Source of the DNA: Candidatus Heimdallarchaeota archaeon
GTDB lineage: Archaea > Asgardarchaeota > Heimdallarchaeia > Heimdallarchaeales > Heimdallarchaeaceae
Assembly: GCA_019057375.1 (NCBI GenBank)
Contig: DXJF01000045.1
Location: 24,316-88,315, forward strand
DNA length: 64,000 nt
Direction: 5' to 3'
Every line of letters starts with the position of its first letter. The first letter of the stretch is position 1. Under the pieces are notes generated by a model. That model ran no database searches, had not been told where the DNA came from, and saw nothing but the letters and a program-made list of their open reading frames with translations. This document shows positions 8,839 to 43,588 of the stretch, one piece after another. A program made the translations under genes and the position numbers.

Positions 8839-8925
8839 AGTCTTGGTTATTCGACAGAAGAGACTTATAAATTTAATTTTAACCGATTGAAATAAAAAAT
8901 AGAGAACTCATGAAGCTTCAAGAGT

Positions 8926-9582
8926 TCATTTTTCTGGTAGTCGGGGTCTTAAAACTAGATAAAGTAAGCCACCAAACAATGGAATGCAGAAGAGTGCGAA
9001 CAATTTAATATTATGCCATTCCCTTCTTTTCATATCGCTCCAAATGACTATAGGGTAGAACAAAGTTAACAGAGAAAAATCTATTGTCATCACTTGTATG
9101 AAACGAATGTCCATAAAACTTGATCCATACACGCTCCAATTGCCATTGATGCTAGCTGCAATAATTCCAAACAATACAAGAGCTAAAGCCAATGCAGTTA
9201 ATATAATACCTAAGATGCGTGAATCAACTATTTTTGTGAACCATGTTTTTTTGGTCTTTGGGTTTTTTCTCCTAACTCCCCTTATTGCAAAATATGGCAT
9301 CAGTGCATACATTCCTAAAGCAAATGATCCCAATACAAAAGGCCATGCTGGTATGAATCTTTCTCTGACCTCTATAAAGAGTATTACAGAATAGAGTAAA
9401 GCCCAAACACCTACTACCATGAAAATACTCCATTCAATAGGATTGGTTTTAGCATACTCAATCGTGAAATCCCCAAAACCTGGATCACTTTGTTGTGCAG
9501 CTGGTGCCCATATAAATGTATATAGTAGAAAAAACAACCACAATACTAAAAATACAAATATAGACTCAGAAATTCTTTCCAT
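8926..9582 (-). CDS. Integral membrane protein (218 aa)
   Basis: Six or more hydrophobic helices. The C-terminal IPLFGGLLYLVLRPR resembles the short PLD-N-terminal-like membrane motif. Confidence 0.55.
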   Translation of the reverse strand: MERISESIFVFLVLWLFFLLYTFIWAPAAQQSDPGFGDFTIEYAKTNPIEWSIFMVVGVWALLYSVILFIEVRERFIPAWPFVLGSFALGMYALMPYFAIRGVRRKNPKTKKTWFTKIVDSRILGIILTALALALVLFGIIAASINGNWSVYGSSFMDIRFIQVMTIDFSLLTLFYPIVIWSDMKRREWHNIKLFALFCIPLFGGLLYLVLRPRLPEK

Positions 9583-9687
9583 GGGACTCTAAATTCTTTG
9601 ATAGAAGATAATAAATTTCTTTGTTCTTGTTCTTTTAATTCTGTTTCTGAATTTTCCATTTTAGTTCTCCTTCTGAGATGTACTTTA

Positions 9688-10386
9688 TTAAGTGTTGAAT
9701 GCTCTGTCTCCTGCGTCTCCTAAGCCAGGAACAATGTATCCCTTTTCATTAAGTTCCTTATCGACTGCACCAGCTAGGATATTCACTTCTGGAAACTCCT
9801 TCTGAATTCTTTCTATACCGAATTGAGATGCAATCGCACAAAGAACGATTATTCTGAGAGGTTTTTGTTTTTTGATTTGCTGAAGTGTAAATAGTAATGT
9901 AGATCCACTAGCTAGCATAGGATCAACAACTATAGCAATCTTATCCTCAAGATATGGAATACTGGAATAAGTACAATCAATTCGGAAATCCTTCCCATCG
10001 TCTCGAAGTTTTTTACCTCTTGAAGCTGAAATTAAACCAGCTTTGGCGTTGGGGAGTACTTCTAATACTCCTTCAGACATTGGTAGTGCTGCTCTTAGGA
10101 TTGTAATTACTACGATATTAGTTTTTATTTTTTTGAAATCAGCTTCCCCTAGAGGTGTTTCAATTTGCATTATTTCTGTTTCTAGAAATTTTGCTGCTTC
10201 ATAAGTTAAATAATTCCCAATTCGCTTAAGATTTATTCTGAAATCAGCTGGGTTTGTTTGTTTATCCCTTAATTTACCAATAATTTCAGAAATAAGAACG
10301 TTAATTTTACTACCATTGAATAGCATCAAGCAATAGTATAAACTAGCTAGATTAAATATATTTTTCAAAAACACAAGGTCACTCAA
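9688..10386 (-). CDS. upp: Uracil phosphoribosyltransferase
   Basis: PRPP-binding loop VVDPMLASGST and C-terminal YIVPGLGDAGDRAF, both hallmarks of Upp. The true start may be an internal Met (e.g. 10326). Confidence 0.85.
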   Translation of the reverse strand: MSDLVFLKNIFNLASLYYCLMLFNGSKINVLISEIIGKLRDKQTNPADFRINLKRIGNYLTYEAAKFLETEIMQIETPLGEADFKKIKTNIVVITILRAALPMSEGVLEVLPNAKAGLISASRGKKLRDDGKDFRIDCTYSSIPYLEDKIAIVVDPMLASGSTLLFTLQQIKKQKPLRIIVLCAIASQFGIERIQKEFPEVNILAGAVDKELNEKGYIVPGLGDAGDRAFNT

Positions 10387-10432
10387 CTTTAGAGAATAAA
10401 AGTAATATACTTAATTTGACATACTTAACTTT

Positions 10433-11158
10433 GTGTCCTCTACATCCAAAATTGGTTTCTTATTGATACATGGATTAGGTAGTTGCAGTGCTGTAATGAA
10501 ACCACTTGAGGACTTTCTTACAAATAAAGGCTTTAAAGTACTTAATATCACTCTTCCGGGTCATAATACATTTCCAAAAGATTTGTTAAAGATAGGTTGG
10601 GAAGATTGGGTAGATTATTGTCAAGGAAAACTAGAAATTCTTATGAAGAGCTGTCCAGCAACCTTCATTGTTGGTACTTCCTTAGGTGGTGCCCTCGCAC
10701 TCTATATAACCGCAAAAAATCCCGAGTTGAGCGGAGTAATAACTTGTGCAACAGCTGTAAAACCCTTTAATTTCATTTCATGGTTTGTTATCAATTTTAG
10801 ATTTATACATTATATTGTTCGCTGGATAAAAATTGAGAAAATAAGTTCAAAGTTAGTTGGTAATCCACAAAATTGGGCGGCTTATAAGAAAATACCTGTG
10901 AAGAGTCTTGTAGAAATTGCAAAATTGCTAGATAAGCTTAATCCGATTCTGGGAAATATTAGTCAACCCATATTAATTGTTCATAGTGAGAATGATAAAG
11001 CTGTATCAATAAAAGGCATAGAACAGATTACTTCTTCAATCAGTTCGAGGGATCAAAGCATTGCTAGAATAAGCAAAGGTGGTCATGTAATTATGTTAGA
11101 TGAAGGTTGTACTCAAGCTCTTACAGAGATAGAAAACTGGATTGATGTGAGAATATAG
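10433..11158 (+). CDS. Alpha/beta-hydrolase (esterase/lipase-type, 241 aa)
   Basis: HG oxyanion motif LLIHGLG, nucleophile elbow GTSLGG, C-terminal GGH. GTG start. Confidence 0.75.
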   Translation: MSSTSKIGFLLIHGLGSCSAVMKPLEDFLTNKGFKVLNITLPGHNTFPKDLLKIGWEDWVDYCQGKLEILMKSCPATFIVGTSLGGALALYITAKNPELSGVITCATAVKPFNFISWFVINFRFIHYIVRWIKIEKISSKLVGNPQNWAAYKKIPVKSLVEIAKLLDKLNPILGNISQPILIVHSENDKAVSIKGIEQITSSISSRDQSIARISKGGHVIMLDEGCTQALTEIENWIDVRI

Positions 11159-14538: not shown

Positions 14539-16053
14539 CTAAACTATAAGTGCTATTTTGCTCACAATTAATTCTGGCCATAGACCAAGAACTATTAGAA
14601 CAACTGCAATTATAGCTAAAGCCATTTTTTCGAATATTGGTATTTTTATTTTGCCTGTATCTTTAGCGTCTGGCTCATCGAAGAGCATTTTCTTTAGAAT
14701 ATATAGATATCCTCCTAAAGCTAGTAAGGAGTTAATGATAGCCATAACAACCAACAAAATGCTGTTGATAAACATCAAAGGATTAGCGGCGTTGGCACCA
14801 CCATTGAAAGTAGCGAGAATTACCATTAATTTTGATGCAAAACCACCTGTTATAGGAATACCACCTAACGATAGTAACCCTATTGTTAGGACTGCACCAA
14901 TAAAGGGTGATCTTCTTCCTATACCTATCATGTCTCTGAGATCTCTTGACCCAAGTGTTGTAATTAGAACTCCACTGAGCAAGAACAGACCACCTTTACC
15001 TAAAGAGTGTGTAAGTATGTGGAATACTGATGCTTGAACTCCTAAATTGCCAGGAGCTAGAGAACCAATTCCGAGTATGATGTAACCAAGGTGTACAGTG
15101 GTCGAGTATGCTAAGATTCTCTTGAAATCAACAATATCTTTACGCTTGAATTGAGAGAACACTAAGTAATTCCCTTCAATCATTGTGAAGATACCTAACC
15201 AAGAGATAACAGCTCCGGCACCAGAACTTAGTACTTCAGGAGTATATGCGAAGTATAAAGTTCTATAGATACCTATTGCACCAGCTTTAACAACAATTCC
15301 AGAAAGTAGTGCGGAAATAGTTGAAGGAGCTAAGCTGTGAGCATCTGGTAACCAAGCGTTCAAGAATAGCATGGCTGCAGTTACTGCAAAGCCTGTTATG
15401 AACAACGAGATTATTACAACGGCAATAGCTGCTGTACCACTAGCTTGTACTGCTGTAGAAACAAGTTCAAAGTTTACCGAACCATAGAAACCGTATGTCA
15501 AAGCAGTAGCTAATAAAACCAACATACTTCCAGCAGTTGACATGATAAAGTATTTCATTGACGCTTCTACTGCACCTCTTTTTGCTCTCTCAAAAGCTAC
15601 CAGCACATAAGCACTTAGTGCAAACAGTTCCCATCCAACAAATAGTGTGATGAAATTGTTTGCCATAGTTACAGTAATTAAACCGGTGAGCAAAGTGAAG
15701 ATTAATGCATAGTAGTAACCAAGTCCATTTTTACCTTTCATGTAGTTAACGCTGAATAGTACTACCATCCAGACAAGGAAGCTGAATATTGTGATTAACA
15801 CTGCTTCAAGTTGTCCAAACCTTAGTAAATCTCCTGTTGTACTAGCAATGTAGTCTCTAAATGCAGGTACATAAGCTGAAATAAATCCTAGAACAAAGAC
15901 GCTTAACGCAATTATGTTAGCTAAAGCATGATTAACACAATCAGTTCTTATCTTCATTTTGGTTAAGAATTTTTTCAGTTGCTCAAATAGTGATAAGAGT
16001 ATAGCACCTGCAATTGGTATAATCAAGATTAAGGATAGATATGTGTTCAACAT
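14539..16053 (-). CDS. Antiporter-like proton-translocating subunit (NuoN/NuoM/MrpD family, 504 aa)
   Basis: ~14 TM helices with the family pattern GWELFALSAYVLVAF ... KYFIMS ... LPDAHS ... KAGAIGIYR. Its start overlaps the stop of the upstream gene by 1 nt. Confidence 0.85.
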   Translation of the reverse strand: MLNTYLSLILIIPIAGAILLSLFEQLKKFLTKMKIRTDCVNHALANIIALSVFVLGFISAYVPAFRDYIASTTGDLLRFGQLEAVLITIFSFLVWMVVLFSVNYMKGKNGLGYYYALIFTLLTGLITVTMANNFITLFVGWELFALSAYVLVAFERAKRGAVEASMKYFIMSTAGSMLVLLATALTYGFYGSVNFELVSTAVQASGTAAIAVVIISLFITGFAVTAAMLFLNAWLPDAHSLAPSTISALLSGIVVKAGAIGIYRTLYFAYTPEVLSSGAGAVISWLGIFTMIEGNYLVFSQFKRKDIVDFKRILAYSTTVHLGYIILGIGSLAPGNLGVQASVFHILTHSLGKGGLFLLSGVLITTLGSRDLRDMIGIGRRSPFIGAVLTIGLLSLGGIPITGGFASKLMVILATFNGGANAANPLMFINSILLVVMAIINSLLALGGYLYILKKMLFDEPDAKDTGKIKIPIFEKMALAIIAVVLIVLGLWPELIVSKIALIV

Positions 16054-17897
16054 TAGACCATCACCACCAACAAAGTAGCAACAACAATAAATATCGCTAC
16101 CACTGATCCAAAGATCATGTTCCAGTTTATCTTACCAGTCTTGAAGAATGATAATTTTTGACCAATCCAGAAGACAGGTTTGACAAATACTAAGTTGTAC
16201 AAGTGATCAATATAGAATCCGTTTGCTACAAAAGTTCTCAGCGCTTTGAAGACACTGATTTTTTCTACAAAACCTACTTCTGTTTGTCCTTTACCATAGA
16301 ACAGATAAGCTAATCCTAACCCAAGAATGATTGCACCTATTGCACATAAGAATGGCACCAGTACTACATGTATTAGGCTATATCCTGTATCTCCAGTAAA
16401 GAAGTTACTAGCTGGACCTTCAATTATGAAACCTGTAACTACTACTAAAACAGCTAATATAGCCAGAACAATTCTCATGATATACTTTGGTTTGTGCACA
16501 CTAGCTCCTCGGTTCTTGCCATGGAATATCATCAAAAACATTCTTGCAGCATATAAAGTTGTTAAGAATGCTACTAAAATACCTACGATGAAAGTAAACC
16601 AATGCATTGAGGCACCATCAATTGCCGCTGCTTCATATGCAGCAGTTATTATCATTTCTTTGGAATAACCACCATTTGTGATAATTGGAATACCCATTAA
16701 ACCGAGAACACCAACCATCATGAATCCGTAAACCCAAGGTAGTTCTTTTTTCAAACCACCCATTTTCTTCATATCTCTTTCTTCTGCAATAGAATGAATT
16801 ATTGCACCTGCTGACAAAAACAGTAGAGCTTTGAAGATTGAGTGGGATAATAAGTGCATCTGACCTGGTATTAGTCCAGTTCCATGATCCTCTCTTATTG
16901 TAAAGGCTAAGAACATATAGCTAAGCTGTGAGATTGTGCTGTATGCAAGAACTCTTTTCAGATCTGTCGTAACTAATGCACCAAATGCAGCAGCTACACA
17001 AGACACTCCAGCTATTATCATTAGTACAATGTAGAAGAATTCGCTATCCCAGATGGGTGAGAATCTAGCTACTAAGTAGACACCAGCCTTAACCATTGTT
17101 GCAGCATGAATTAATGCTGAAACTGTAGTTGGACCTTGCATTGCATCTATATCAACTGTATCACCTGCACTCAACCATGATTGCAATGGAAATTGTGCAG
17201 ATTTTGTTATCGGAGCTAAGAGTAATAGAATACTCATAACAATTGGATAAGTTCCTCCAAGTGGTGTTGTTGTGTCTATGATCAATGGATTAGCTAAACC
17301 AAGTTTTTTGTTTTCGTAATAAATCCAAGCTAAGAACGCTAAGAGACCAAGATCTCCAATTCCTGTCATGATAAGAGCTTTAATTCCACTCTTTGCTGGT
17401 TTTTCTCCTGCTTCACCTTTCTTCATGAAGAAGTGTCCGATTAGGAAACAAGAACAAAGTCCTACAATTTCCCAGCCAAGGAATAAGAATACCATGTCGT
17501 GAGCAAGAACTAGTAATAACATACCTCCAACGAACATTTGAATGAAGAACCAATATCTTGCTTTGTGTTTGTCTTCTTTCATGTATTCTATAGAGAAGAA
17601 TGCAATTAGCATACTCAAGATTGATACAATTAGCACCATTAAGACTGATAATGAATCCAGGTATATTCCTGATTTATTATCTCCCCAATTTAGCCAATTT
17701 AAGAGATAGTACGTTTCTCCTTTATAAGTACCAAATATCAAAATTGACATTATTGCTGATACTGCTATTGTAGATACGCTGAAGAAGTCTCTAACTGTTG
17801 GTAATTTCTTCAATAGTAATGATAGAAAAGAACCAATAATAGGAACTACTACAGAAATTATTGCAAATAGTATTATTGTTTGTACCATTTTTATCAC
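16053..17897 (-). CDS. NuoL/MrpA/MbhH-like antiporter subunit (614 aa)
   Basis: GWEIVGLCSCFLIGHF, WLSAGDTVDIDAMQGPTTVSALIHAATMVKAGVYL and LAYSTISQLSYMF are classic NuoL/ND5 motifs. Confidence 0.9.
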   Translation of the reverse strand: MIKMVQTIILFAIISVVVPIIGSFLSLLLKKLPTVRDFFSVSTIAVSAIMSILIFGTYKGETYYLLNWLNWGDNKSGIYLDSLSVLMVLIVSILSMLIAFFSIEYMKEDKHKARYWFFIQMFVGGMLLLVLAHDMVFLFLGWEIVGLCSCFLIGHFFMKKGEAGEKPAKSGIKALIMTGIGDLGLLAFLAWIYYENKKLGLANPLIIDTTTPLGGTYPIVMSILLLLAPITKSAQFPLQSWLSAGDTVDIDAMQGPTTVSALIHAATMVKAGVYLVARFSPIWDSEFFYIVLMIIAGVSCVAAAFGALVTTDLKRVLAYSTISQLSYMFLAFTIREDHGTGLIPGQMHLLSHSIFKALLFLSAGAIIHSIAEERDMKKMGGLKKELPWVYGFMMVGVLGLMGIPIITNGGYSKEMIITAAYEAAAIDGASMHWFTFIVGILVAFLTTLYAARMFLMIFHGKNRGASVHKPKYIMRIVLAILAVLVVVTGFIIEGPASNFFTGDTGYSLIHVVLVPFLCAIGAIILGLGLAYLFYGKGQTEVGFVEKISVFKALRTFVANGFYIDHLYNLVFVKPVFWIGQKLSFFKTGKINWNMIFGSVVAIFIVVATLLVVMV

Positions 17898-18705: not shown

Positions 18706-28100
<9,395 letters not shown>

Positions 28101-28502: not shown

Positions 28503-30629
<2,127 letters not shown>

Positions 30630-30633
30630 ATAG

Positions 30634-33578
<2,945 letters not shown>

Positions 33579-34171: not shown

Positions 34172-34836
34172 AAATCAAAATCTTCTAGTTCATCCATTGA
34201 ACCAACAAGTTTTTCATCCTTTTTCTTCTTCTTCTTCTTCTTTTTGTCTCTTACAGAACTTACTGCAGTTGATAACTCCGAGATGAAATCACTAGGTAAT
34301 GTACCTCTTGGAGCTTCAGTTTCCTCATATGGAGGTTCTGTTATCGGTGTTTCTGTCTGTTGAGCTGTTGGAAACTCCTCTGCTGGTTCACCAACAGATT
34401 CGGTTTGTGGTTCAAAAACAATATCTTGTGAAGTATCAACAGTTGGTCCTTCTATCTCAGTTTCTGTTAATTGAGGAGCTTCAACTAATTCTGATTGTTG
34501 TTGAAATTCTTGAGTAACAGATTCATTTGGGGGAGTATATTCAGCAGAACCGCCAGATAATCCTGGATGAGTATCAGCAGCAGCTTCTGCTAAAGTATCA
34601 GCTGATCTATCTGGGACTAAGCTTCCATCTTGTAGAAGCTTAACAACTTCTTTAGCTAGAGATCTCATCTGTGGATTCAATTGATACATGTAACGAGGTA
34701 AATTAGATTTAATCTGTTGAAGAAAATATGTACCTGTTTCATAATCTTGAATATAGAATGCTTGTATAGCCTGAACTATTAATTGCTGAACAAGTTTATC
34801 AGGAGGTACTGCCGATTGTGGTGAGTGTGGAAACAT
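34168..34836 (-). CDS. Acidic, low-complexity (E/T/P/Q-rich) protein with C-terminal poly-Lys tract (222 aa)
   Basis: ORF track. N-terminal ~70 aa helical, then a predicted disordered acidic region, then DKKKKKKKKDEK encoded by an (AAG)n run (plus-strand TTC x6 at 34223-34240). Confidence 0.45.
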   Translation of the reverse strand: MFPHSPQSAVPPDKLVQQLIVQAIQAFYIQDYETGTYFLQQIKSNLPRYMYQLNPQMRSLAKEVVKLLQDGSLVPDRSADTLAEAAADTHPGLSGGSAEYTPPNESVTQEFQQQSELVEAPQLTETEIEGPTVDTSQDIVFEPQTESVGEPAEEFPTAQQTETPITEPPYEETEAPRGTLPSDFISELSTAVSSVRDKKKKKKKKKDEKLVGSMDELEDFDF

Positions 34837-35042
34837 ATAAACCTATATCACTAATATCAAGAGATTATTTTAAAATTGTGGAAAAGGAAAAGGAGTTTTG
34901 TAATTTACAAATGCTATGATTAATGTATATAAACCTTAGAATCTCAATAATAAAGAAATTTGTTCCTACTAATTAGATTTAGAAGTATAAGAAAGAATTC
35001 CTTTATTTCTCATCTGGTAAATCCACTATCTTTAAAATACAG

Positions 35043-36446
35043 TTGAAAGCTATCCACAAGAGAAGGGACTTGGAAATATTGAGTACCGATAACAACCTTT
35101 TGTCAAAAACACTAAATGAAGTCAAAACAAGGTTGTATCTAGATGATCGTCGTCGACTCTCTCCAATATTGTTGGGAATAATTGGTAGCTTTTCAATGAC
35201 AATTTTCATGTCCTATGTTGGTTTACACTTGAAAGACATTAATACTGTAGTCTGGATGATAACACTCATTCTTGCGTTAAGAAATATCTACCAGATATTT
35301 CTAAGAGTTCCATTAGGACATTTTTCACAAATGATTGGTAGAAAACCTTTGTTAATTGCTGGAATTGGTTTTTATACAATTAGCTTGTTTTTTCTTGCTA
35401 TAGCATCTCACTGGAGTTTAGTAATTGTAGCAATAACATTCTTGGCTATAGGAATGTCTTGCTTCTGGCCAGTAATATTTGCATATATTTCTGATGTTGA
35501 AGAAAATAAGAATCTAGGTAAAGTACAAGGGAGATTGTTCCAAGGAACAGATTTGGGGGCTATATCAGGAGCTTTGTTAGCTTTTCTTCTGTTAAAAAGG
35601 TCAAAAATAACTATTTCAACAATTTTACCATTATCAAGCATAAACATCATCAATATACCAGAAATAACATATCCCCTGTCTCAATTACGTATTCTTTTCT
35701 CTTGGGGGGCAGGTATTTCTCTAGTTGGAGTAATTGCATTAGCTTTCTTCATGCCTGAAGTACTGAAAAAGGAAGACCGACTACAAGTAGATTCCAAATT
35801 GAAAGCTTTGGGCGATGCTTTTGTCTCTATGTACCAGTCATTACTCATAGTTACAAAGCAGAAAAAACTAAGTTTCATTTACGTTATACAATTGGCGATA
35901 GCTTTTCTAGAATATATTGTTACGGCTTTCTTTCCTTTCCTAATTATAGCCAAGGGATTCTCTTATGATGTAGTTGCACAAATTGCTTGGATTACATCTT
36001 GTGTGTTGATTTTTTTCAAACCTTATCTAGGTCGATTAGTTGATAAATTAGGGTACAGAGGACCAATATTTGTTACTCTTCTTCTTTCTTCTAGTATGCT
36101 TATCCTAATGGTATTTGTGAGCTCCTTATCTTGGTTGATTGTTGTATACATGGTATATAGTGCTAGTAGCTTAACAAGTTATATTGGTGTGAATACAGGA
36201 ACGACAATGGAATCAAAAAATACCCAACGTGGCATAGCTTTAGGAGCTTTAGGATTTTATGTATCCTTGTCGAGGTCGGCCTCAACATTAAGCTTAACAC
36301 CTGTTTGGGGAAAACTAGGCATTGAAGCAGTTTTTATAACAACTTCAATTATTATTATTTCAGCTGCAATAACTATTTATCTGATATATTATTTAATAGG
36401 AAACGGAAACAAAATAAAAATAAAAAGAAAGAAAGGTTATTCCTAA
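35043..36446 (+). CDS. MFS-type transporter (about 12 TM)
   Basis: Hydrophobicity pattern with a loop 2-3-like motif GHFSQMIGRKP and GRLVDKLGYRGP in the second half. Start uncertain (TTG in the ORF track). Confidence 0.7.
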   Translation: MKAIHKRRDLEILSTDNNLLSKTLNEVKTRLYLDDRRRLSPILLGIIGSFSMTIFMSYVGLHLKDINTVVWMITLILALRNIYQIFLRVPLGHFSQMIGRKPLLIAGIGFYTISLFFLAIASHWSLVIVAITFLAIGMSCFWPVIFAYISDVEENKNLGKVQGRLFQGTDLGAISGALLAFLLLKRSKITISTILPLSSINIINIPEITYPLSQLRILFSWGAGISLVGVIALAFFMPEVLKKEDRLQVDSKLKALGDAFVSMYQSLLIVTKQKKLSFIYVIQLAIAFLEYIVTAFFPFLIIAKGFSYDVVAQIAWITSCVLIFFKPYLGRLVDKLGYRGPIFVTLLLSSSMLILMVFVSSLSWLIVVYMVYSASSLTSYIGVNTGTTMESKNTQRGIALGALGFYVSLSRSASTLSLTPVWGKLGIEAVFITTSIIIISAAITIYLIYYLIGNGNKIKIKRKKGYS

Positions 36447-36919
36447 GCCGGAACTTCTTTTTTCTCGACACCAATAAGATCTTCTTTTAATTTACCTAGT
36501 AGTGTAGCAATAGCTGCAACAATGTTCTCAGGTCTTGGAGGACAACCATAAACCCAAGCGTTTATAGGAAGAACATGATCAATACCACCTAAAATAAATG
36601 GGCATTCTTGGAATACTCCACCAGTAGTACAGCAGTTTCCTACAGCAACTACAAACTTGGGGAGAGGCATTTGTTCATAAACACGTTTGACACGTTCAGC
36701 GACTTGAGCAGTGACGGGGCCAGTGATGACGAGGACGTCAGCCTGACGGGGAGTACCACGAAGGGTGATACCATATTGTTCAAGGTCATGACGAGGAGTG
36801 AGAGCGTCTACAATCTCGATATCGCAACCATTACAGCCACCAGCATTCATATGTATAATCCATGGGGAACGAAGGGCACAATTAACACCAAATTTCTTTA
36901 ACCAACCCATTTTAAGCAC
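36443..36919 (-). CDS. Group-4 [NiFe] hydrogenase small subunit (NuoB/HycG/MbhJ-like, 158 aa)
   Basis: Proximal [4Fe-4S] ligands in GGCNGC, GNCCTTGG and GCPPRP. Confidence 0.9.
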   Translation of the reverse strand: MLKMGWLKKFGVNCALRSPWIIHMNAGGCNGCDIEIVDALTPRHDLEQYGITLRGTPRQADVLVITGPVTAQVAERVKRVYEQMPLPKFVVAVGNCCTTGGVFQECPFILGGIDHVLPINAWVYGCPPRPENIVAAIATLLGKLKEDLIGVEKKEVPA

Positions 36920-37382
36920 CTCGGAATTCCACTATTTCTTTTATTCTTTTTCCGCCAGCTTCGATAAGATCACTTAGTTTCTTATCAGCTACATCACCTT
37001 TGTAACTACCTTTGGCAACAAGCATTTCATAGTCTTGATGAATATTGAATGAGAATAGTGAAACAGATAAGTTAGGATCTCGATCAATATGAATCGCGTC
37101 AACGGGGCAATAAGTTTGGCAGTGGCCGCACCACATGCATTGTGGTTTTAATAGCCATATAATTCCATTCTCTTTGTCATCTTTCTCAATTTCTATACAA
37201 TGTGTTGGACAAACTTTCACACATGTTCCACACATAATACATCTATCTTCGATAATTCTTGGAATTGTTCTGATATCTTCTGGTGGTGGATTTTCCGCAA
37301 TCCTCTTTAGAACATGTTTTGTCACAGGTCCTTTTGCGTGGTTTTTTAGGGCTTCTCCGCCCATTACTAATACTTTTTTCAT
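36912..37382 (-). CDS. 2x[4Fe-4S] ferredoxin-type subunit (NuoI/HycF/MbhN-like, 156 aa)
   Basis: CIMCGTCVKVCP and CMWCGHCQTYCP. 8-nt overlap with the small subunit gene. Confidence 0.85.
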   Translation of the reverse strand: MKKVLVMGGEALKNHAKGPVTKHVLKRIAENPPPEDIRTIPRIIEDRCIMCGTCVKVCPTHCIEIEKDDKENGIIWLLKPQCMWCGHCQTYCPVDAIHIDRDPNLSVSLFSFNIHQDYEMLVAKGSYKGDVADKKLSDLIEAGGKRIKEIVEFRGA

Positions 37383-37394
37383 CTTCTTTTCACC

Positions 37395-38651
37395 TCAGAA
37401 AAATGGCCTATTATATTTCTTGGCCTTTATAGCTTTTCTAGCAAATTCGTCTTGATTCAGAATCATTTTTTCTCCTGTTACTTCGTTAATTATCATAACT
37501 CTGTTTGTACAGGAGAAACATGGATCGTAGCTTCTCAGAATTACTGGCATATCAGCCACATATTCCCCATCCATCCTCTTAAGGGTAGCGTCAATATTGC
37601 CTAGAGATGGTGCTCTTATTTTGTATCTTTCTGGTGTATCTGTACCATTAGCTATACCATAATGAACATCCTCACCTCTTGGTGCTTCACCTCTTGCAAA
37701 ATAGCTTCCTTCTGGGATTCTTTGTTTAACTCTTGCTAATAGTTCACCTTGAGTAGATTCAAGTTGTTCCAGAATCTGTTTACATATTTGTAGAGATTCT
37801 AAAGTTTCATCAAGCCTAACCAAAGTAGTTGCTAAGATGTCTCCTTCATTATAATAAACCAAATTCCAATCAATTTTATCGTATAATTCATATGGAGTTG
37901 CTTTTCTTACATCAAAAGGCAATCCTGAACCTCTTCCAGTAGGTCCATTGGGGGTTACTTTCTTTGCATCCTCTTTAGTTAAGACACCTACATCTTCTAA
38001 ACGATTTCGAATTGATGCTTCCTCAGTGAATACTTTCTTATGGTATTCAACTTGTTTTATTAGTTTGTCCAACATAGGTTGTGCTCTATCTGCTTTTTCT
38101 TTTGGAATGTCTCTTTTTACACCACCAGGAAGCATCAAAGCTGGATTGACTCTATTTCCACTAAAATCTTCTACAATATCCATGATAATTTCACGGTCTC
38201 TCCATGTAACATGTAACATTGTATCAAATCCTGCATCATGAGCAAGTATTCCATACCAAAGTATGTGTGAATGAATACGTTCTGCTTCTAAACTGAACAT
38301 ACGGATTAATCTTGCTCTTTCGGATATTTGATCCTCAACACCTGCAAGTTTGTCAACTAATCGAACATAAACATTTTGATGAACAGCACTACAGATACCA
38401 CAAGCTCTGGGAATTAACATGGTGTTTTGTCTCCATGTTTTATTTTCCATTGCTTTTTCAATCCCTCTGAGATTGAAACCTATTCTGATATCAGCTTCAA
38501 CCACTCTTTCTCCTTTCAAATGAATAATAAAGTGAGCTGGTTCTTCTGCCCAGGGGTGTTGTGGTCCGATAAATATGTGATGATCGGCTCCAGGGGGAGC
38601 ATCGCTACCATCTGTTAAAGTTCTAAATCTGGATCGGTATTGTTCTGTCAT
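37395..38651 (-). CDS. Group-4 [NiFe] hydrogenase large (catalytic) subunit (NuoD/HycE/MbhL-like, 418 aa)
   Basis: N-terminal NiFe-ligand motif RACGICSAVH (C84, C87) and C-terminal DPCFSCTNR (C378, C381), followed by a 34-residue tail after R384. Confidence 0.92.
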   Translation of the reverse strand: MTEQYRSRFRTLTDGSDAPPGADHHIFIGPQHPWAEEPAHFIIHLKGERVVEADIRIGFNLRGIEKAMENKTWRQNTMLIPRACGICSAVHQNVYVRLVDKLAGVEDQISERARLIRMFSLEAERIHSHILWYGILAHDAGFDTMLHVTWRDREIIMDIVEDFSGNRVNPALMLPGGVKRDIPKEKADRAQPMLDKLIKQVEYHKKVFTEEASIRNRLEDVGVLTKEDAKKVTPNGPTGRGSGLPFDVRKATPYELYDKIDWNLVYYNEGDILATTLVRLDETLESLQICKQILEQLESTQGELLARVKQRIPEGSYFARGEAPRGEDVHYGIANGTDTPERYKIRAPSLGNIDATLKRMDGEYVADMPVILRSYDPCFSCTNRVMIINEVTGEKMILNQDEFARKAIKAKKYNRPFF

Positions 38652-39175
38652 TATTTAGCCTCCTCCAAACCTTCTTTTGTAATTTTCATTGTAATTTCCT
38701 TGATCTGTTCCCAACCATACTCTTTTCGCATTGGTTTTACATCATCTGGCCATCTTTCAGGTAAGATTAACCTTTGCAGGAATGGGTGGTTTTCAAAGTA
38801 AATACCATAAAAATCATAAATTTCTCTTTCATAATAATCAGCAGCAACAAAAAATTCCAGCATACTTGGAGTTTTTGGTTTGTTTTTGTCGATTTTAGTT
38901 ATAATGAAATTTATCGGTACTTCCCTAAATTCATCTTCTATTCTGTGTTGAATATGATAACAAACGTTGAATTCATCATCTTTCTCAACACCTGATATTG
39001 TTGATAGGTGATATATGCCTGCATCTTCACGCAGTATTTTCATAAGTTCAAAGGCATTTGTCACGTTACTCATAACGTCAAAGTGACCTTCTTCAACTTT
39101 TATCACTTCTTCAACAAGGTTTCCAGGTAAAGTTACATTTAAAATTCCTTCTAATTCTTTGAGTACATCACTCAT
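38651..39175 (-). CDS. NuoC/30-kDa-subunit-like hydrogenase component (174 aa)
   Basis: Signature ADYYEREIYDFYGIYFENHP. 1-nt overlap with the large subunit gene. Confidence 0.85.
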   Translation of the reverse strand: MSDVLKELEGILNVTLPGNLVEEVIKVEEGHFDVMSNVTNAFELMKILREDAGIYHLSTISGVEKDDEFNVCYHIQHRIEDEFREVPINFIITKIDKNKPKTPSMLEFFVAADYYEREIYDFYGIYFENHPFLQRLILPERWPDDVKPMRKEYGWEQIKEITMKITKEGLEEAK

Positions 39176-39276
39176 AAGAAATCCTCACATCGCATTTTAG
39201 TTTAATCAAGAATCAGTCATAAAAAAAGGTTGTGCTGTAGAGATGTGAATGATATAAGTAAATGCTTCAAAAAAGA

Positions 39277-39960
39277 TTAACCTTTGATAAGAAGATAATC
39301 GTTCCCTTTGAATTTTTCAGGAATTTCCTGTAAATACCAGCCTCTAGCTTGTAAAACTAGAAGGTTTCCAAACACTATTGGTGTCAAACTTTGATTTCCT
39401 ACTCTGAAATTATCTTCTGAAACCCATTCTCCTTCTTCTTCTTTGAAATCAATCCATTCATTGATAGAAAGAAATCTTCCTGTATATCGAACTCCATAGG
39501 CTTTCTCTAACATTTCTGGAACCGACTCAATTATGTTTTGAGCTATGTCTTCACTCTCATTTTCAAGACCCTCAATTATTCCTTCTAGTACTGCTGTCTT
39601 AGTTTCAAAGTCATGTGCCATCTTGGGTTTTATTGGTGGAAAATGTTCAATAGATGGAAATATGGCTTCTTCTTCACAGAGAAAAACTCTTTCAGTTATA
39701 TTTCTAAACTTATATCCTCTTACAACTAAAATGATAATATATGCAATATCAATATTGTTGATTTTGTATTTTCTCTTAACTAGTTTTAATCCTTCTACAA
39801 CGCTTATTTTACTTTTAGCTTCTCCCGTACATTCATAATCATCAAAAATATCTGGGATAGATCGCATTAGATTTGTTAAAAAGAACTGATTTGTTTTATT
39901 GGAAAAGTCTATGAAATTTCTCAAAATTAGGGCGTTAGCATCATTTTCTCTGAGCACCAT
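39277..39960 (-). CDS. Hypothetical protein (227 aa)
   Basis: ORF track; lies between the hydrogenase catalytic operon and hypC; no family recognised. Confidence 0.45.
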   Translation of the reverse strand: MVLRENDANALILRNFIDFSNKTNQFFLTNLMRSIPDIFDDYECTGEAKSKISVVEGLKLVKRKYKINNIDIAYIIILVVRGYKFRNITERVFLCEEEAIFPSIEHFPPIKPKMAHDFETKTAVLEGIIEGLENESEDIAQNIIESVPEMLEKAYGVRYTGRFLSINEWIDFKEEEGEWVSEDNFRVGNQSLTPIVFGNLLVLQARGWYLQEIPEKFKGNDYLLIKG

Positions 39961-40028
39961 ACTAATAAAAAATAACAGTAATAATCTATTTAACTTATTC
40001 GTTATTCCTTTGAGGAAACTTAGAAAAA

Positions 40029-40250
40029 TCAGCTACTGAGTATCTCATCCCAGAGTTTCAAATCTTCTTTAGCTTGTTCTGGATCAAGTTTCTGAATTAT
40101 GAAACCAGTGTGAACTAAAACATAATCACCTATATCTAGAGATTCTTCAAGAAGAGTAGTATCAGCTTCGCGTCTAACACCAGTGATGTCAACCATTACT
40201 CTCTTATCATTCAGTATCTCACATACCAATCCAGGAATTGCCAAACACAT
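40029..40250 (-). CDS. hypC: Hydrogenase maturation chaperone HypC
   Basis: The N-terminus MCLAIPG is the family hallmark (essential Cys2), so the start is set at 40250 rather than the ORF-track 40259. Confidence 0.92.
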   Translation of the reverse strand: MCLAIPGLVCEILNDKRVMVDITGVRREADTTLLEESLDIGDYVLVHTGFIIQKLDPEQAKEDLKLWDEILSS

Positions 40251-40536
40251 AAGTCTCACATCATCATTTTTACTTCATTAATTAACTGTAGCCAACTGAG
40301 AGTTAAAAAACTTATCCAATTTTGCTAGAAGCGCTATGAAGTATTAAGGGTGCTTCTTAGAGAGGTGAAGAAAAACTCTTTTTTATAAATTTTTTTTCTA
40401 CATTTTTTTTCGAAATATGAACAATTAAATGATTTTTACCGGGTTTATATATCGTTTTAAAGATTAGATGGTGAGAGATTTGAGAACATAATCAGCACAA
40501 CTAGCACAGGTTCACACTCACTCTAGCTCAGCTAAG

Positions 40537-42420
40537 GTGATGAGAAACTATCAAGTGGTGTTGCAGTGTTTTGACCAGTCCCAACGAGAAGAGATTAATC
40601 AAAGAATAAGGAAATTAGAAGAAAGACAAGTTTTGCTTCTCACTCCTTTTGTTGTTAAGAAAGCTGTAGACCTCTACCGAACCAACCCGAAAGAAAGATT
40701 CTTCATTCGCAAACTAGGTAAAGCTGTGGGGATGAACCCTAATATAGCAGAGAGTGCTTTCCATTGGCTTCATATAGCTGTTAAAGGGAAGATTGACAAA
40801 GAGAAGAAAGTGCAAGGAATGCTCAACTTTCTACTAAAAAATCCTCAACAGTTGATAGAATGGCTGATTTTTGGTCGTTCTCCCTATACTGAACGTAGTC
40901 TGGAAAACTATTGGAAATTGAAAAGAAGATATATTATCAATCTTCTTACCAATTCCAGAACACAAGTGGACTCATTTTGGAGAAAGAAGAAGAAAACGAT
41001 ATATACATCTGCAACTCTTAAGCTAAACTACTTGCTCCCAACTTGTACTCAGCAAGACGTTCTCCAAGCAATCGACGATGCGTTGTTTTACTACACTCAC
41101 AAATTTTCTACACTTCAACAGCTTAATAATAATCAGCAAGCATTTCTCAACAAAATCAAACTGTTAAAGAAAGAACAAACAACAGTTGTTCCCTTCCTCA
41201 CTTCTTGGATCAACAGTCCTCAATCTTCTCGATGGAAAAGTCTCAAAGAACTCTCAGAACAACTAGCTCAAGTGCTAGGAAAGCCTACCCGAAAACTCTT
41301 TTCAGCTGTTAGGTTGATAGTCGTTTTCACACTCTTTGATTATTACATGCAGAGTATCCCTCAGTTAATCAAGGCTCTCCCAGCAGAGAAAATTGTTCCC
41401 CCATCATTTAAACGAAAAAAGAAAGGAAGATTACCAATCAAACTATTAATGAAAAAAGATTATGTTATTGCCCGTGAAGGGAATGCACAAGAATTAACCA
41501 AACAAGTAAAGAAGCAAGGAATTACTGTATTTAGTTTTCCGCAACAAGGTAAAAAGAGATTAACTGCTCAAGTTCGTTTTCCGCAGAAAATAGTAGAATA
41601 TTTGCACAATGGAGCTAATATCAAAGTTTTCCAAGTAAGCAGTGGAAAAGCACCAAGCTATAAACCTCGAGTAGATGTGGTGCTGGAAGGAACACATGAT
41701 TGTTTCCATTCTTCTACACTTCTTCACAGTTATCTTCCCCAGATTCCTGTAAAGAAAGCTTCTGTCCTTGGGATAGATATTAACCGCTTAGGACAATATA
41801 TGGTAACATTTAATGTTCCTGTTCCCCTTCCCCCAGATTTACTAGCTTTAGCAAAACACTATGATCACCTCAGCAAAAAGGTAATAGATGAACTTAATCG
41901 AGGGTATCTTCGCAAACGAAAGGAGTATGATACTTTTGAAAGCTGTAAACTCAAGGGAGAACTCAACCGTGTCTATAATCGTCGCAGTCGAATCCTTCGA
42001 GAAATCACTCGCCTTCTTCCTCATTTTCTTGCAGCAGTGTTAGTGAAGAAACGCAGTCAAGCTCTTAAAATTGAACGTCTTACTGCTGATGCTACTGGTA
42101 CTAAAGGAGCATTAGCTAAAGCCATCCTTACCATGCCCGACAGTTTGTTTATCTACAAAAAAGCTGTTTGGTTGGCTTCTTTGGAATTAGGTTATGACGT
42201 GGAGTTAGAAGTCGTTAATCCTCATTACACTAGTTCTCTTCACCATGGTTGTGGTGGAGTGCTTGCTCGAGTTAAAGGTCAATATGACTATGCTCCATGT
42301 AAGAAATGTGGTAAAAAAGTCAATACTCATTTCAATGCAGCTCATAACATCGCTTCCCTTTCTGGTACCCTACTCCCTTATGATCATTTTCCCTCAACGC
42401 ACGTGAGGGGATCCAATTAA
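40537..42420 (+). CDS. TnpB/Cas12-like RuvC-fold protein with zinc ribbon and long N-terminal extension (627 aa)
   Basis: RuvC-I VLGIDINR (D414), RuvC-II LKIERL (E513), NPHYTSS, zinc ribbon HHGC...CKKCG, RuvC-III-like NTHFNAAHNIA. GTG at 40537 followed by ATG at 40540. Confidence 0.8.
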   Translation: MMRNYQVVLQCFDQSQREEINQRIRKLEERQVLLLTPFVVKKAVDLYRTNPKERFFIRKLGKAVGMNPNIAESAFHWLHIAVKGKIDKEKKVQGMLNFLLKNPQQLIEWLIFGRSPYTERSLENYWKLKRRYIINLLTNSRTQVDSFWRKKKKTIYTSATLKLNYLLPTCTQQDVLQAIDDALFYYTHKFSTLQQLNNNQQAFLNKIKLLKKEQTTVVPFLTSWINSPQSSRWKSLKELSEQLAQVLGKPTRKLFSAVRLIVVFTLFDYYMQSIPQLIKALPAEKIVPPSFKRKKKGRLPIKLLMKKDYVIAREGNAQELTKQVKKQGITVFSFPQQGKKRLTAQVRFPQKIVEYLHNGANIKVFQVSSGKAPSYKPRVDVVLEGTHDCFHSSTLLHSYLPQIPVKKASVLGIDINRLGQYMVTFNVPVPLPPDLLALAKHYDHLSKKVIDELNRGYLRKRKEYDTFESCKLKGELNRVYNRRSRILREITRLLPHFLAAVLVKKRSQALKIERLTADATGTKGALAKAILTMPDSLFIYKKAVWLASLELGYDVELEVVNPHYTSSLHHGCGGVLARVKGQYDYAPCKKCGKKVNTHFNAAHNIASLSGTLLPYDHFPSTHVRGSN

Positions 42421-42425
42421 ACGAC

Positions 42426-42453
42426 GGTTAAAAGCCTTTTGGCAAGTTTAACC
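42426..42453 (+). other. Stem-loop 6 nt after the tnpB-like stop codon (candidate right-end / guide-RNA scaffold hairpin, or terminator)
   Basis: GGTTAAA-A-GCC-TTTT-GGC-AAG-TTTAACC: a 7-bp plus 3-bp stem with a UUUU loop. Confidence 0.4.
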
Positions 42454-42484
42454 AAGTTTCATAACGTGTGTTTTCATCTAGCAA

Positions 42485-43588
42485 CTAATCTTCCCAAATT
42501 ATCTCTTCGTAAGTAGCTGCTACATTACATGTACCTTCATGACTGACCATACATGCCCCAATTGGATGATCAGGTCTACAAGCTTTATTAAATAATTTAC
42601 ATTTATGTGGTTTAGATTTTCCAACCAGAATTTCATCACAAATACAACCACTATGAAGATCTGTAACCTCAAGCTCAGGGATTTCATATTTCTTCTTAGC
42701 ATCAATATGACTATACTTATCAGCTATCTCATGACCTGTATCTGGCCAAACACCCAAACCTCTCCACCTTGCATCAGAAACAACATAAGCTTCTTCCATT
42801 GTTTTGAGAGCTGCAACATTACCTTCGTATCTTACATAACGTTTGTACATATTATCAACTCTTGAGGTATTTTCATTGAATTGCTTCAACAGTGCATAAA
42901 TTCCAACAAGGATATCTACTGGTTCAAAACCAGCTACAGCAACAGGAAAATTATATTTTTCAGGAATAAAATCATAAGGTTTGGCGCCAATAATTGTAGA
43001 AACATGACCCGGAGCTAAAAATCCTTGAAATTCTAAATCATCTCTTTGCAATAAAAGTTCCATTGCTGGGGGAACAAGCTTATGTGATGAGTAGATACTG
43101 AAATTGGGAAGTGTAGTACGGACAACTTCAGCAGCTGTAACACAAGAGGTAGTTTCAAAGCCAACACTGAAGAAAAGAACATCTCTGTCAGGTGTTTGTT
43201 CTGCAAGTTTGATAGCATCAGATACACTATAAACTACGCGAACATCAACACCCCTTCCTTGAGCCTGATATAGAGACTCTTTAGAACCAGGGACACGCAT
43301 CATATCACCAAAAGTGGCAATAATAACATTATGATTATCAGCAATCCAAAGAACTTCATCAACATCTTGGGCACTAGAGACACAAACGGGACATCCAGGA
43401 CCAGCTATCAAGTCTATTTCTTTTGGTAATAATGAACGCAATCCTGCTTTTACTAAGTCATGTTCATGGGTTCCACAAACATGCATAATACGTACTTTTC
43501 CACCTATTTGTTCTGTCAGTTGTTTTATCTTCTTAATTATGGCATCAACTAGTTCTTTATCTCGATACTTTTGTGTTGGTTCTGACAT
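42485..43588 (-). CDS. hypD: Hydrogenase maturation protein HypD (367 aa)
   Basis: HVCGTHEH, GPGCPVCV and a C-terminal Cys cluster (CKLFNKAC ... GACMVSHEGTC). Confidence 0.93.
   Translation of the reverse strand: MSEPTQKYRDKELVDAIIKKIKQLTEQIGGKVRIMHVCGTHEHDLVKAGLRSLLPKEIDLIAGPGCPVCVSSAQDVDEVLWIADNHNVIIATFGDMMRVPGSKESLYQAQGRGVDVRVVYSVSDAIKLAEQTPDRDVLFFSVGFETTSCVTAAEVVRTTLPNFSIYSSHKLVPPAMELLLQRDDLEFQGFLAPGHVSTIIGAKPYDFIPEKYNFPVAVAGFEPVDILVGIYALLKQFNENTSRVDNMYKRYVRYEGNVAALKTMEEAYVVSDARWRGLGVWPDTGHEIADKYSHIDAKKKYEIPELEVTDLHSGCICDEILVGKSKPHKCKLFNKACRPDHPIGACMVSHEGTCNVAATYEEIIWED

Follow-up and report, generated by a model that had tools for sequence, protein, structure and literature searches.

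The DNA considered here is a 64,000-nucleotide stretch of a Candidatus Heimdallarchaeota archaeon assembly (GCA_019057375.1, contig DXJF01000045.1, forward-strand positions 24,316 to 88,315), hereafter the window, in whose own numbering all positions are given. Between hypC (PF01455, 40029-40250, minus strand) and hypD (PF01924, 42485-43588, minus strand) lies a TnpB-like open reading frame (ORF) of 627 amino acids (aa) at 40537-42420 on the plus strand, with a GTG start and an ATG one codon further on (40540). It belongs to an element that runs antisense to the hyp genes and sets them 2.2 kb apart. In three relatives (L079, L080 and L081), hypD and hypC are adjacent across spacers of ~50-75 nt, with the site empty; a large TnpB/Cas12-like ORF separating the two genes, as the original prediction from the sequence had described, is thus borne out by comparison with uninterrupted hypD-hypC pairs. 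We hold it likely that these 2.2 kb are one non-autonomous insertion of the IS607 family, native to Heimdallarchaeota and working by a TnpB/omegaRNA mechanism.

To place the element's boundaries, we aligned copies of it from other genomes. On the right, conservation among ~40 copies breaks off after ...CAAGTTTCATAACGTGYGT, which corresponds to window position 42471, 13 nt from the hypD stop codon (42485-42487). On the left, conservation starts at ACYGT-nnnnn-AACTG..GAGTGAAAACTTAYCCAATCTTGCCA. The metagenome contig L079, which encodes HypD and HypC at 92% identity to those of the window, has an uninterrupted hypD-hypC spacer that reads ...CATTAATTAACTGTTTTCATCTAGCAA... in element orientation; the occupied site in the window, with slashes at the junctions, reads ...CATTAATTAACTGT / AGCC...element...ACGTGTGT / TTTCATCTAGCAA. 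ACTGT is present once in the L079 site and TGT stands at both window junctions, which indicates a core shared between element and target and no target duplication. A second pair of occupied and empty sites (L014/L045) shows the same pattern with ACCGT. Of 26 copies, 25 have ACYGT at the left junction, with nothing conserved further 5′, and in 23 of the 26 its Y is the Y of the right end, a coincidence that fits exchange within YG. As judged from these junctions, ACYGT is also the probable target-adjacent motif (TAM) of the TnpB. The insertion occurred after the split from the L079 lineage, or else L079 lost it without a scar.

In the window, the element occupies 40287-42471 on the plus strand (2182 bp with the shared TGT counted once). 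The target motif ACTGT at the left junction (40285-40289) consists of host AC and the TGT core (40287-40289) common to target and element end. It is followed by a conserved block, AGCCAACTGAGAGTTAAAAAACTTATCCAATTTTGCTAGAAG (40290-40331). In copies that have tnpA, the left end ahead of that gene aligns with this block, which is presumed to be the subterminal region that TnpA binds. Inspection by eye shows a direct repeat of CAAGTTT at the right end (42443-42459), its two units spaced 10 nt apart and almost unchanged from copy to copy, and, inversely oriented, AAACTT...CTTGCC at the left end (40305-40326). TnpA may bind these motifs, which at the right end overlie an RNA hairpin described below (hairpin 2).

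What is left of the native hypD-hypC spacer on the hypC side (40251-40284, minus strand) includes an AT-rich GTTAATTAA box, ~27 nt before the hypC ATG and directly on the hypC side of the insertion, that is conserved in L079, L080 and L081. This box may be hypC's own promoter, so the polarity of the insertion on hypC is uncertain; a scan for sigma-70 promoters and intrinsic terminators is uninformative in an archaeal host. Of the original prediction's first reading, a tnpB-only insertion sequence (IS) polar on hypC, the insertion itself is upheld by the ends, the empty site and sibling copies, some with tnpA, and the doubt falls on the polarity. The element may affect hyp expression.

Related elements are numerous. 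A scan of one genome per species uncovered 77 loci in about two dozen metagenome-assembled genomes (MAGs), with up to 10 per MAG and many running off contig ends, as repeats do; the copy count and the alignment of ends suggested in the original prediction were both obtained from these loci. Alignment of their 5′ flanks revealed a conserved coding sequence upstream of many copies, a ~199-aa protein with MerR helix-turn-helix and Resolvase domains that scored 167.5 and 170.1 bits against the NCBIfam model of the IS607 family transposase (NF033518, cutoff 110). At ~15 loci, an intact TnpA gene lies directly upstream of tnpB on the same strand, and many others retain 5′ or 3′ remnants; L026, with TnpA at 5296-5892, is one such autonomous copy. 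The window itself contains no tnpA, CRISPR array or terminal inverted repeat (array scan over 30000-52000) and no second copy of the element in its 64 kb, and a repeat search on the element returned low-complexity noise only, in agreement with the earlier statement that tnpA, a CRISPR array and terminal repeats are absent. Since sibling copies carry an IS607 TnpA and the window copy carries none, the window copy is a non-autonomous (tnpA-less) IS607-family derivative.

This derivative has moved. The genes most closely related to the window's tnpB lie in unrelated surroundings, one between rtcA and the rpl3 operon and one between an ATC_hydrolase gene and selR. The window copy and L002/L165 share a tnpA-less 5′ region of 255 nt (77% identical) at different sites, which argues that the deletion derivative itself has been mobile, presumably mobilised in trans. 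Copies are diverged, those within a MAG being at most 91% identical to one another; because MAG assembly collapses identical repeats, near-identical copies could be hidden. It had been proposed that many identical copies together with a tnpA elsewhere would make this an ordinary active IS; multiple copies and the link to tnpA were indeed found, and the copies are diverged rather than identical. On contig L004, a second full copy (8784-10778, minus strand; a 647-aa ORF and a 111-bit match to the RNA model described below) lies convergent to the first, ~1.9 kb away.

The protein is of the TnpB/Cas12 kind. Pfam PF07282 (Cas12f1-like_TNB) matched residues 553-605 above its cutoff (31.8 versus 26.3 bits, E=1.6e-7), and the NCBIfam TnpB and Cas12f models gave weak matches. 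CnCas12f1 (8hr5) was the best phmmer match in the PDB (E=7.6e-6), with KVNADYNAARNIA aligned to the ORF's KVNTHFNAAHNIA. All matched Cas12f and TnpB chains of the PDB have N-A-D-x-N-A-A opposite the ORF's N-T-H-F-N-A-A, which places His598 at the position of the RuvC-III Asp. Of the profile searches named in the original prediction, the curated profiles are divided, PF07282 lying above its cutoff and the NCBIfam guided_TnpB model far below. Searching 5.8 billion proteins yielded 142 homologues, mostly full-length (620-650 aa) and 60-85% identical, almost all from Heimdallarchaeota MAGs with a few Thorarchaeota proteins at 41-48% identity; an exhaustive HMMER search over 1.84 billion cluster representatives yielded 162 relatives at E<=1e-3. 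An exact look-up for a protein identical to the window ORF (P0001) found no record.

Conservation was assessed in 95 full-length family members and in 38 diverse relatives with identity down to ~25%. RuvC-I Asp414 (GIDIN, 41776-41778) and RuvC-II Glu513 (LKIERL, 42073-42075) are each present in 95/95 family members and 38/38 distant relatives, and N416 is conserved in all 38 of the diverse relatives. The third member of the D-E-D triad is replaced by His598 (NTHFNAAHNIA, CAT at 42328-42330), a position that His occupies in 94/95 of the family and in 36/38 of the distant relatives. Among the 162 relatives, the RuvC-III motif, where readable, is N-T-H-x-N-A-A, with N-A-D in one of the weakest matches only. 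Retention of His598 across family and relatives marks it as an old, selected character of the clade and not as decay of the window copy. The zinc ribbon of the TNB domain (H569-x2-C572...C588-x2-C591, 42241-42309, within the PF07282 match, with R578 and D584 also conserved) has His in place of Cys as its first ligand in 95/95 family members and 37/38 distant relatives; C572 and C588 are invariant in the family, C591 is Cys in 94/95, and all three Cys are kept in 38/38 distant relatives. This motif is not C4 and is probably still a zinc site. By sequence comparison, then, D414-E513-H598 with R578 and the H-C-C-C ribbon is a conserved ancestral feature of the clade.

The residues and codon coordinates that the original prediction had given for D414, E513, the HHGC...CKKC ribbon and His598 are all correct. 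It had also held that a neighbouring Asp supplying the third carboxylate would overturn its view of the site, and no lineage-specific compensating carboxylate was found among the family and the 38 diverse relatives; D584 was considered for this role and rejected, as it corresponds to the QADF Asp of canonical Cas12f too. Among the 95 full-length members, conservation of the N-terminal 400 residues equals that of the RuvC part, and the ratio of nonsynonymous to synonymous substitution rates (dN/dS) is 0.11-0.18 in both the N-terminal and the RuvC halves. Separately, several giant relatives of 1,200-1,800 aa (P0185, P0188, P0159/P0275, P0147, P0183, P0189 and P0173) share the same C-terminal His-type RuvC/TNB module (NTHxSAALN). 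MAGs of Hodarchaeales and Odinarchaeota are the source of P0185, P0188 and P0275; Pfam finds weak MazE/AbrB-like matches in the middle of P0185 and P0188, and the similarity of P0173 extends to the N-terminal helical region.

An AlphaFold2 model built with the family alignment (pLDDT 86, pTM 0.67) gives the ORF (40537-42420, plus strand) a WED strand at residues 2-10, a helical REC-like region at 14-286, the remaining WED at 301-384, and a RuvC domain at 410-607 with the TNB ribbon. In the model, the all-helical insertion sits between the first WED strand and the remaining beta-rich WED, and the zinc ribbon is inserted ahead of the last helix of the RNase-H-like RuvC domain. The predicted placement of the active site is canonical: D414 and E513 end strands 410-415 and 509-513, and H598 starts helix 597-607. 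Foldseek recovered the WED-REC-RuvC-TNB fold with probability 1.0 to Cas12f and TnpB structures at TM-scores of 0.39-0.42 (target-normalised). The closest was CnCas12f1 (8hr5, E=2.8e-9), followed by the IS607 TnpB ISFba1 (8iaz, 8.6e-9), other Cas12f chains with values between those of 8iaz and 8h1j, ISDra2 TnpB (8h1j, 7.7e-6) and Fanzor2 (9b0l, 6.6e-5). The N-terminus had been singled out as unusually long, and it is: in the model, the extra length is an enlarged REC-like helical insertion.

The 3′ end of the element encodes what resembles an omegaRNA scaffold (42372-42471, plus strand), overlapping the last 16 tnpB codons and ending at the right end. The last ~100 nt of the copies are conserved as DNA whatever the reading frame; a 1-nt indel shifts the stop codon (HV* versus HVRGSN*) and leaves the surrounding sequence undisturbed. 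The predicted fold has hairpin 1 (42389-42411), hairpin 2 (42419-42459; inner stem 42426-42432 with 42447-42453) and a pseudoknot in which the hairpin 1 loop (ACGCACGT, 42397-42404) pairs with the terminal 8 nt (ACGTGTGT, 42464-42471). We evaluated this structure over 41 distinct copies, with 500 shuffles and slid controls. In the two-hairpin pseudoknot, 96.6% of cells pair (24-44% in slid controls), and 9 pairs (26 cells) are changed on both sides, a level reached by 0 of 500 shuffles. The pseudoknot helix alone contributes 3 pairs with compensatory changes (CG/UA/AU, GC/AU and AU/UA). Frequent G-U pairs favour a plus-strand RNA over a DNA repeat. The stem-loop noted earlier after the stop codon (42426-42453) is thus real, and conserved with compensatory changes. 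A nested alternative from RNAalifold, pairing the terminal ACGTGYGT with the region of the NAA codons (columns 103-109), was dropped, having no compensatory change and performing no better than shuffles.

A covariance model of the two hairpins found one match per tnpB 3′ end still present, with 59 full-length matches at 98-121 bits; the single match in the window (114 bits) is as high as in other copies, and a 48%-identical relative is matched weakly. An Rfam scan of 40200-42600 at E<=1 returned a chance-level miRNA match and no matching family. In TnpB omegaRNAs, as the ISDra2 structures illustrate, the scaffold shares sequence with the 3′ end of the ORF, terminates at the element's right end and has its last nucleotides paired back into its own structure. 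By analogy, the segment 42372-42471 would be transcribed as such a scaffold, and the flank from 42472, where conservation has ended (42471), would serve as a guide of the TnpB/omegaRNA type; the putative guide-encoding flank on the plus strand, TTTCATCTAGCAACTAATCT (42472-42491), runs antisense into the hypD stop codon (42485-42487).

Upstream of tnpB, a TATA-like box, GTTTATATAT (family consensus GTTTAAATA; 40443-40452, plus strand), lies ~30 nt before the family's conserved NTG start and is a candidate promoter. Most copies have an open N-terminal extension of ~20 aa from this NTG. In the window, alignment of 5′ regions shows the extension frame to read TTG(40480-40482)-AGA-ACA-TAA(40489-40491), so translation would have to begin further in, at GTG/ATG (40537/40540), unless the copy is impaired in translation; it may be poorly translated or untranslated. 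Predicted products of several other copies begin at the internal Met of a conserved V-M-R motif, just after the extension. The window copy is otherwise intact, with all 72 family-invariant residues, both ends and the RNA scaffold.

Other samples show further alleles around this junction. L164 (GCA_002505645.1, 1-7939), compared with window 34540-42477, shows 100% identity as far as ~41350, in mid-tnpB, and shares the TAA; beyond ~41350 it continues as a ~75%-identical paralogue with another right end (GTGCGT), an E2/UQ_con-like gene as flank and no hypD. It could be a chimera that repeats introduced during assembly or the product of true recombination between copies, and the window arrangement is the simple one. 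The protein P0003, 85% identical and beside hypC, had looked like an old orthologous insertion and was rejected as such: it is this kind of hybrid, 100% identical to ~41350, with another paralogue and another flank thereafter. In two other samples, L159 (1-2225) and L062 (1-1090), compared with window 40163-42437, an 84%-identical allele stands at the identical hypC-proximal junction, its contigs being 96-100% identical to the window in the flanks and ending before its right junction, with the first 50 nt of the left end deleted and the N-terminal extension open. Independent insertion into the same ACTGT, allelic replacement and an old shared insertion are all possible origins of this allele.

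Similar to IS607 of H. pylori, the element family has a MerR-HTH and serine-recombinase TnpA, which in siblings exceeds the NCBIfam cutoff, a tandem tnpA-tnpB order on one strand, and short repeated subterminal motifs (CAAGTTT twice at the right end, by eye). IS607 itself has no terminal inverted repeats, makes no target duplication and exchanges over a 2-bp core, for which it uses GG (Chen et al. 2018, PMC6188088). The Asgard elements likewise lack terminal inverted repeats and target duplications and have a short core common to target and both ends, but this core and target is ACYGT (YG or GT) and not GG. They differ further in their Asgard host, in a TnpB of ~630-650 aa with a His-type RuvC-III, and in the loss of tnpA from the window copy. 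With the TnpB/OMEGA systems (obligate mobile element-guided activity) of ISDra2 (8H1J) and ISFba1 (8IAZ), the family shares the modelled WED-REC-RuvC-TNB fold, a TAM that, as predicted from the junctions, is the transposon's target motif, a 3′ scaffold that starts within the ORF and runs to the right end, and a pseudoknot that pairs the nucleotides just 5′ of the guide. It departs from them in the His at the third catalytic position and at the first zinc ligand, in a REC-like insertion of ~270 aa rather than ~100, and in an RNA with no Rfam match, hence not a right-end RNA (reRNA) of the RAGATH-18 type.

Rearranged catalytic sites of this sort have been catalogued. A TnpB survey (Altae-Tran et al. 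2023, PMC10691335) described six branches with an altered RuvC-III; the largest of them, RIIIr-4, has His in place of Asp and lacks the C4 zinc finger. RIIIr-4 includes archaeal TnpBs associated with RHH (ribbon-helix-helix)/MazE proteins, with activity predicted from conservation, and serine-recombinase-associated rearranged branches were found almost only in archaea (PMC10691335). The family described here resembles RIIIr-4 in the Asp-to-His change across the clade and in the weak MazE/AbrB-like matches of the giant relatives, set beside that clade's RHH/MazE association; it may also do so in its ribbon, which is HCCC rather than C4 but probably still binds zinc. Unlike RIIIr-4, it is linked to a serine recombinase and restricted to Asgard archaea; the Asgard lineage may belong to RIIIr-4 or may instead be one of the archaeal Ser-# or RIIIr-# branches. 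This bears on the original prediction's suggestion of a novel expanded TnpB lineage, which holds for a distinct, Asgard-restricted group of ~630-650-aa proteins with a large helical insertion but not for the Asp-to-His change, already described in RIIIr-4. The Asp-to-His variant and the IS607/OMEGA kind of element were thus known already, and what is added here is a restriction to Asgard archaea, a REC-like insertion of large size, a core of ACYGT and a delimited RNA. In the literature searched, no paper names both TnpB and Heimdallarchaeota, and one Asgard and one archaeal mobile-element paper contain nothing on the Heimdallarchaeial family.

Cas12f nucleases (CnCas12f1 8HR5, AsCas12f and Un1Cas12f1) gave the best structure and sequence matches (Foldseek 2.8e-9; phmmer 7.6e-6) and share the RuvC/TNB core, but the Asgard gene has no CRISPR array, is borne on a transposon and has the His-type site. 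Fanzors are more remote: APMV Fanzor2 (9B0L) is a distant structural match (6.6e-5) and some Fanzors are linked to IS607-like elements, but the relation is not especially close: the matches to prokaryotic TnpB and Cas12f are better, and the host is archaeal.

Put together, these features suggest a cycle in which TnpA, supplied in trans by autonomous siblings, would excise the element and integrate it at ACYGT sites, with exchange inside the shared YGT core leaving no target duplication. In this way the window copy would have come to lie 13 nt beyond the hypD stop, right where the AT-rich box before hypC has its upstream edge. Its TATA-type promoter would drive tnpB, and the 3′ end of the transcript would fold into the two-hairpin pseudoknotted scaffold and run on into the flank, giving an omegaRNA with the guide TTTCATCTAGCAACTA.... 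Once the element has left, TnpB with this omegaRNA would recognise the empty target by its TAM (ACYGT) and its match to the guide and would cut it, after which the element would be restored through recombination with an occupied copy. Such homing, or retention, is an established mechanism of TnpB elements (PMC10055086; 10.1101/2023.11.20.567912).

Several observations weigh against this account. The NCBIfam guided_TnpB model gave only 21.5 bits (cutoff 100), and the window copy has no tnpA. A near-identical second copy was not found among the 77 loci, and recent activity is thus not directly supported. The in-frame TAA at 40489-40491 comes three codons after the family's usual start. Finally, RII-r5, of which one rearranged orthologue is reported active, is the only rearranged-site clade reported as confirmed active in Nety et al. 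2023 (PMC10278001).

Two alternatives concern the state of the copy and its catalytic site. The window copy could be a dead relic, immobile, untranslated and decaying neutrally, with an effect only through the disruption of hypD-hypC. It has no tnpA, no second copy lies in the 64-kb window, and the TAA breaks an extension that is open in most copies. Yet the 627-codon core ORF is intact with all 72 family-invariant residues, as are the left end, the right end and the RNA scaffold (114 bits), and the Met of V-M-R at which this copy could start is the start of predicted products in several others; we regard decay as doubtful. Alternatively, the whole His-type family might be carried on transposons without cleaving, its TnpB and RNA only binding a site with TAM and guide match, and such binding might label or select sites for TnpA or, at donor or target, repress transcription. 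The canonical third carboxylate is missing in essentially the whole clade, no lineage-specific acidic residue compensates for it (D584 being present in canonical Cas12f as QADF), and no His-type member is known to be active. Strong purifying selection on invariant D414, E513 and R578 would nevertheless be unexpected after an old catalytic loss, and the TnpB survey read conserved substitutions as retained activity (PMC10691335). We consider a non-cleaving family unlikely. His is a metal ligand in other RNase-H-fold nucleases, including the DEDH site of Argonaute and the RuvC His of RuvC and Cas9, which likewise argues for catalysis; judged from its conservation, the D-E-H site most likely still binds metal and cleaves.

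The original prediction had also raised a domesticated, nuclease-dead regulator of hyp, in the manner of the TldRs, which are described as TnpB-like nuclease-dead repressors (10.1101/2023.11.30.569447). On this account, an RNA-guided repressor fixed at the hyp locus would control hydrogenase maturation, as could be suggested by the 84%-identical allele at the same hypC-proximal junction in L159 and L062, by a putative guide antisense into the hypD 3′ end, and by the general likeness of a TnpB-derived protein with an altered catalytic motif. The comparisons point the other way: L079, L080 and L081 have no element at the hyp site, the family is mobile, multi-copy and tnpA-linked in many contexts with no conserved partner gene, the His is a family trait, and the guide is the adjacent flank, as in any TnpB element. 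The protein also retains the catalytic D and E and a full C-terminus, a combination that, to our knowledge, described TldRs do not keep. We find this account very improbable and did not uphold it; the insertion is otherwise an ordinary IS with no sign of a host function.

In aggregate, an apparently dead Cas12-like gene in a hydrogenase operon becomes a fully delimited Asgard IS607/OMEGA element. Its defined parts (ends, core, ACYGT, pseudoknotted scaffold, guide boundary and TnpA-bearing autonomous partners) make DNA cleavage by the RuvC-III His clade of TnpB directly testable. A bolder proposal, possible though we advance it only tentatively, is that His-type (D-E-H, HCCC) TnpBs are fully active with an altered metal chemistry and that the Asgard lineage is an independent route to large effectors. 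If so, the Cas12-like enlarged helical lobe and the 1,200-1,800-aa Hodarchaeales and Odinarchaeota relatives would trace an archaeal route from transposon nuclease to effector, and the two 84%-identical alleles at the hypC junction would represent RNA-guided homing or allelic replacement in an Asgard archaeon. The family also documents active-looking selfish DNA, and hybrids that may be repeat-induced in assembly, within Heimdallarchaeial MAGs, which are widely used to draw inferences about eukaryogenesis.

Base composition adds little about origin. At 38.7%, the G+C content (GC) of the ORF ranks second among 52 ORFs, whose mean is 34.4% (z=1.6); hypD and hypC are at ~37%. The higher GC remarked on in the original prediction therefore exists, but the excess is small, and we set it aside as a weak sign of foreign origin. 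The highest GC among window ORFs (43.8%, against the same mean) belongs to the NuoB-like small hydrogenase subunit gene (36443-36919, minus strand), one of the group-4 [NiFe]-hydrogenase genes (NuoC-, NuoD-, Fer4- and NuoB-like) at 36443-39175.

Between these genes and hypC lies a 227-aa ORF (39277-39960, minus strand) with no Pfam match. In L079 and L081, the ORF next after hypC has the same MVLRE... start, and a 227-aa gene occupies this position in L164; the window ORF may encode an uncharacterised hydrogenase-associated protein. Elsewhere in the window are hypF (20347-22707), Mrp/Mbh-type antiporter subunits (16053-17897), and adjacent gyrB and gyrA genes for a bacterial-type DNA gyrase (28521-33144, plus strand).

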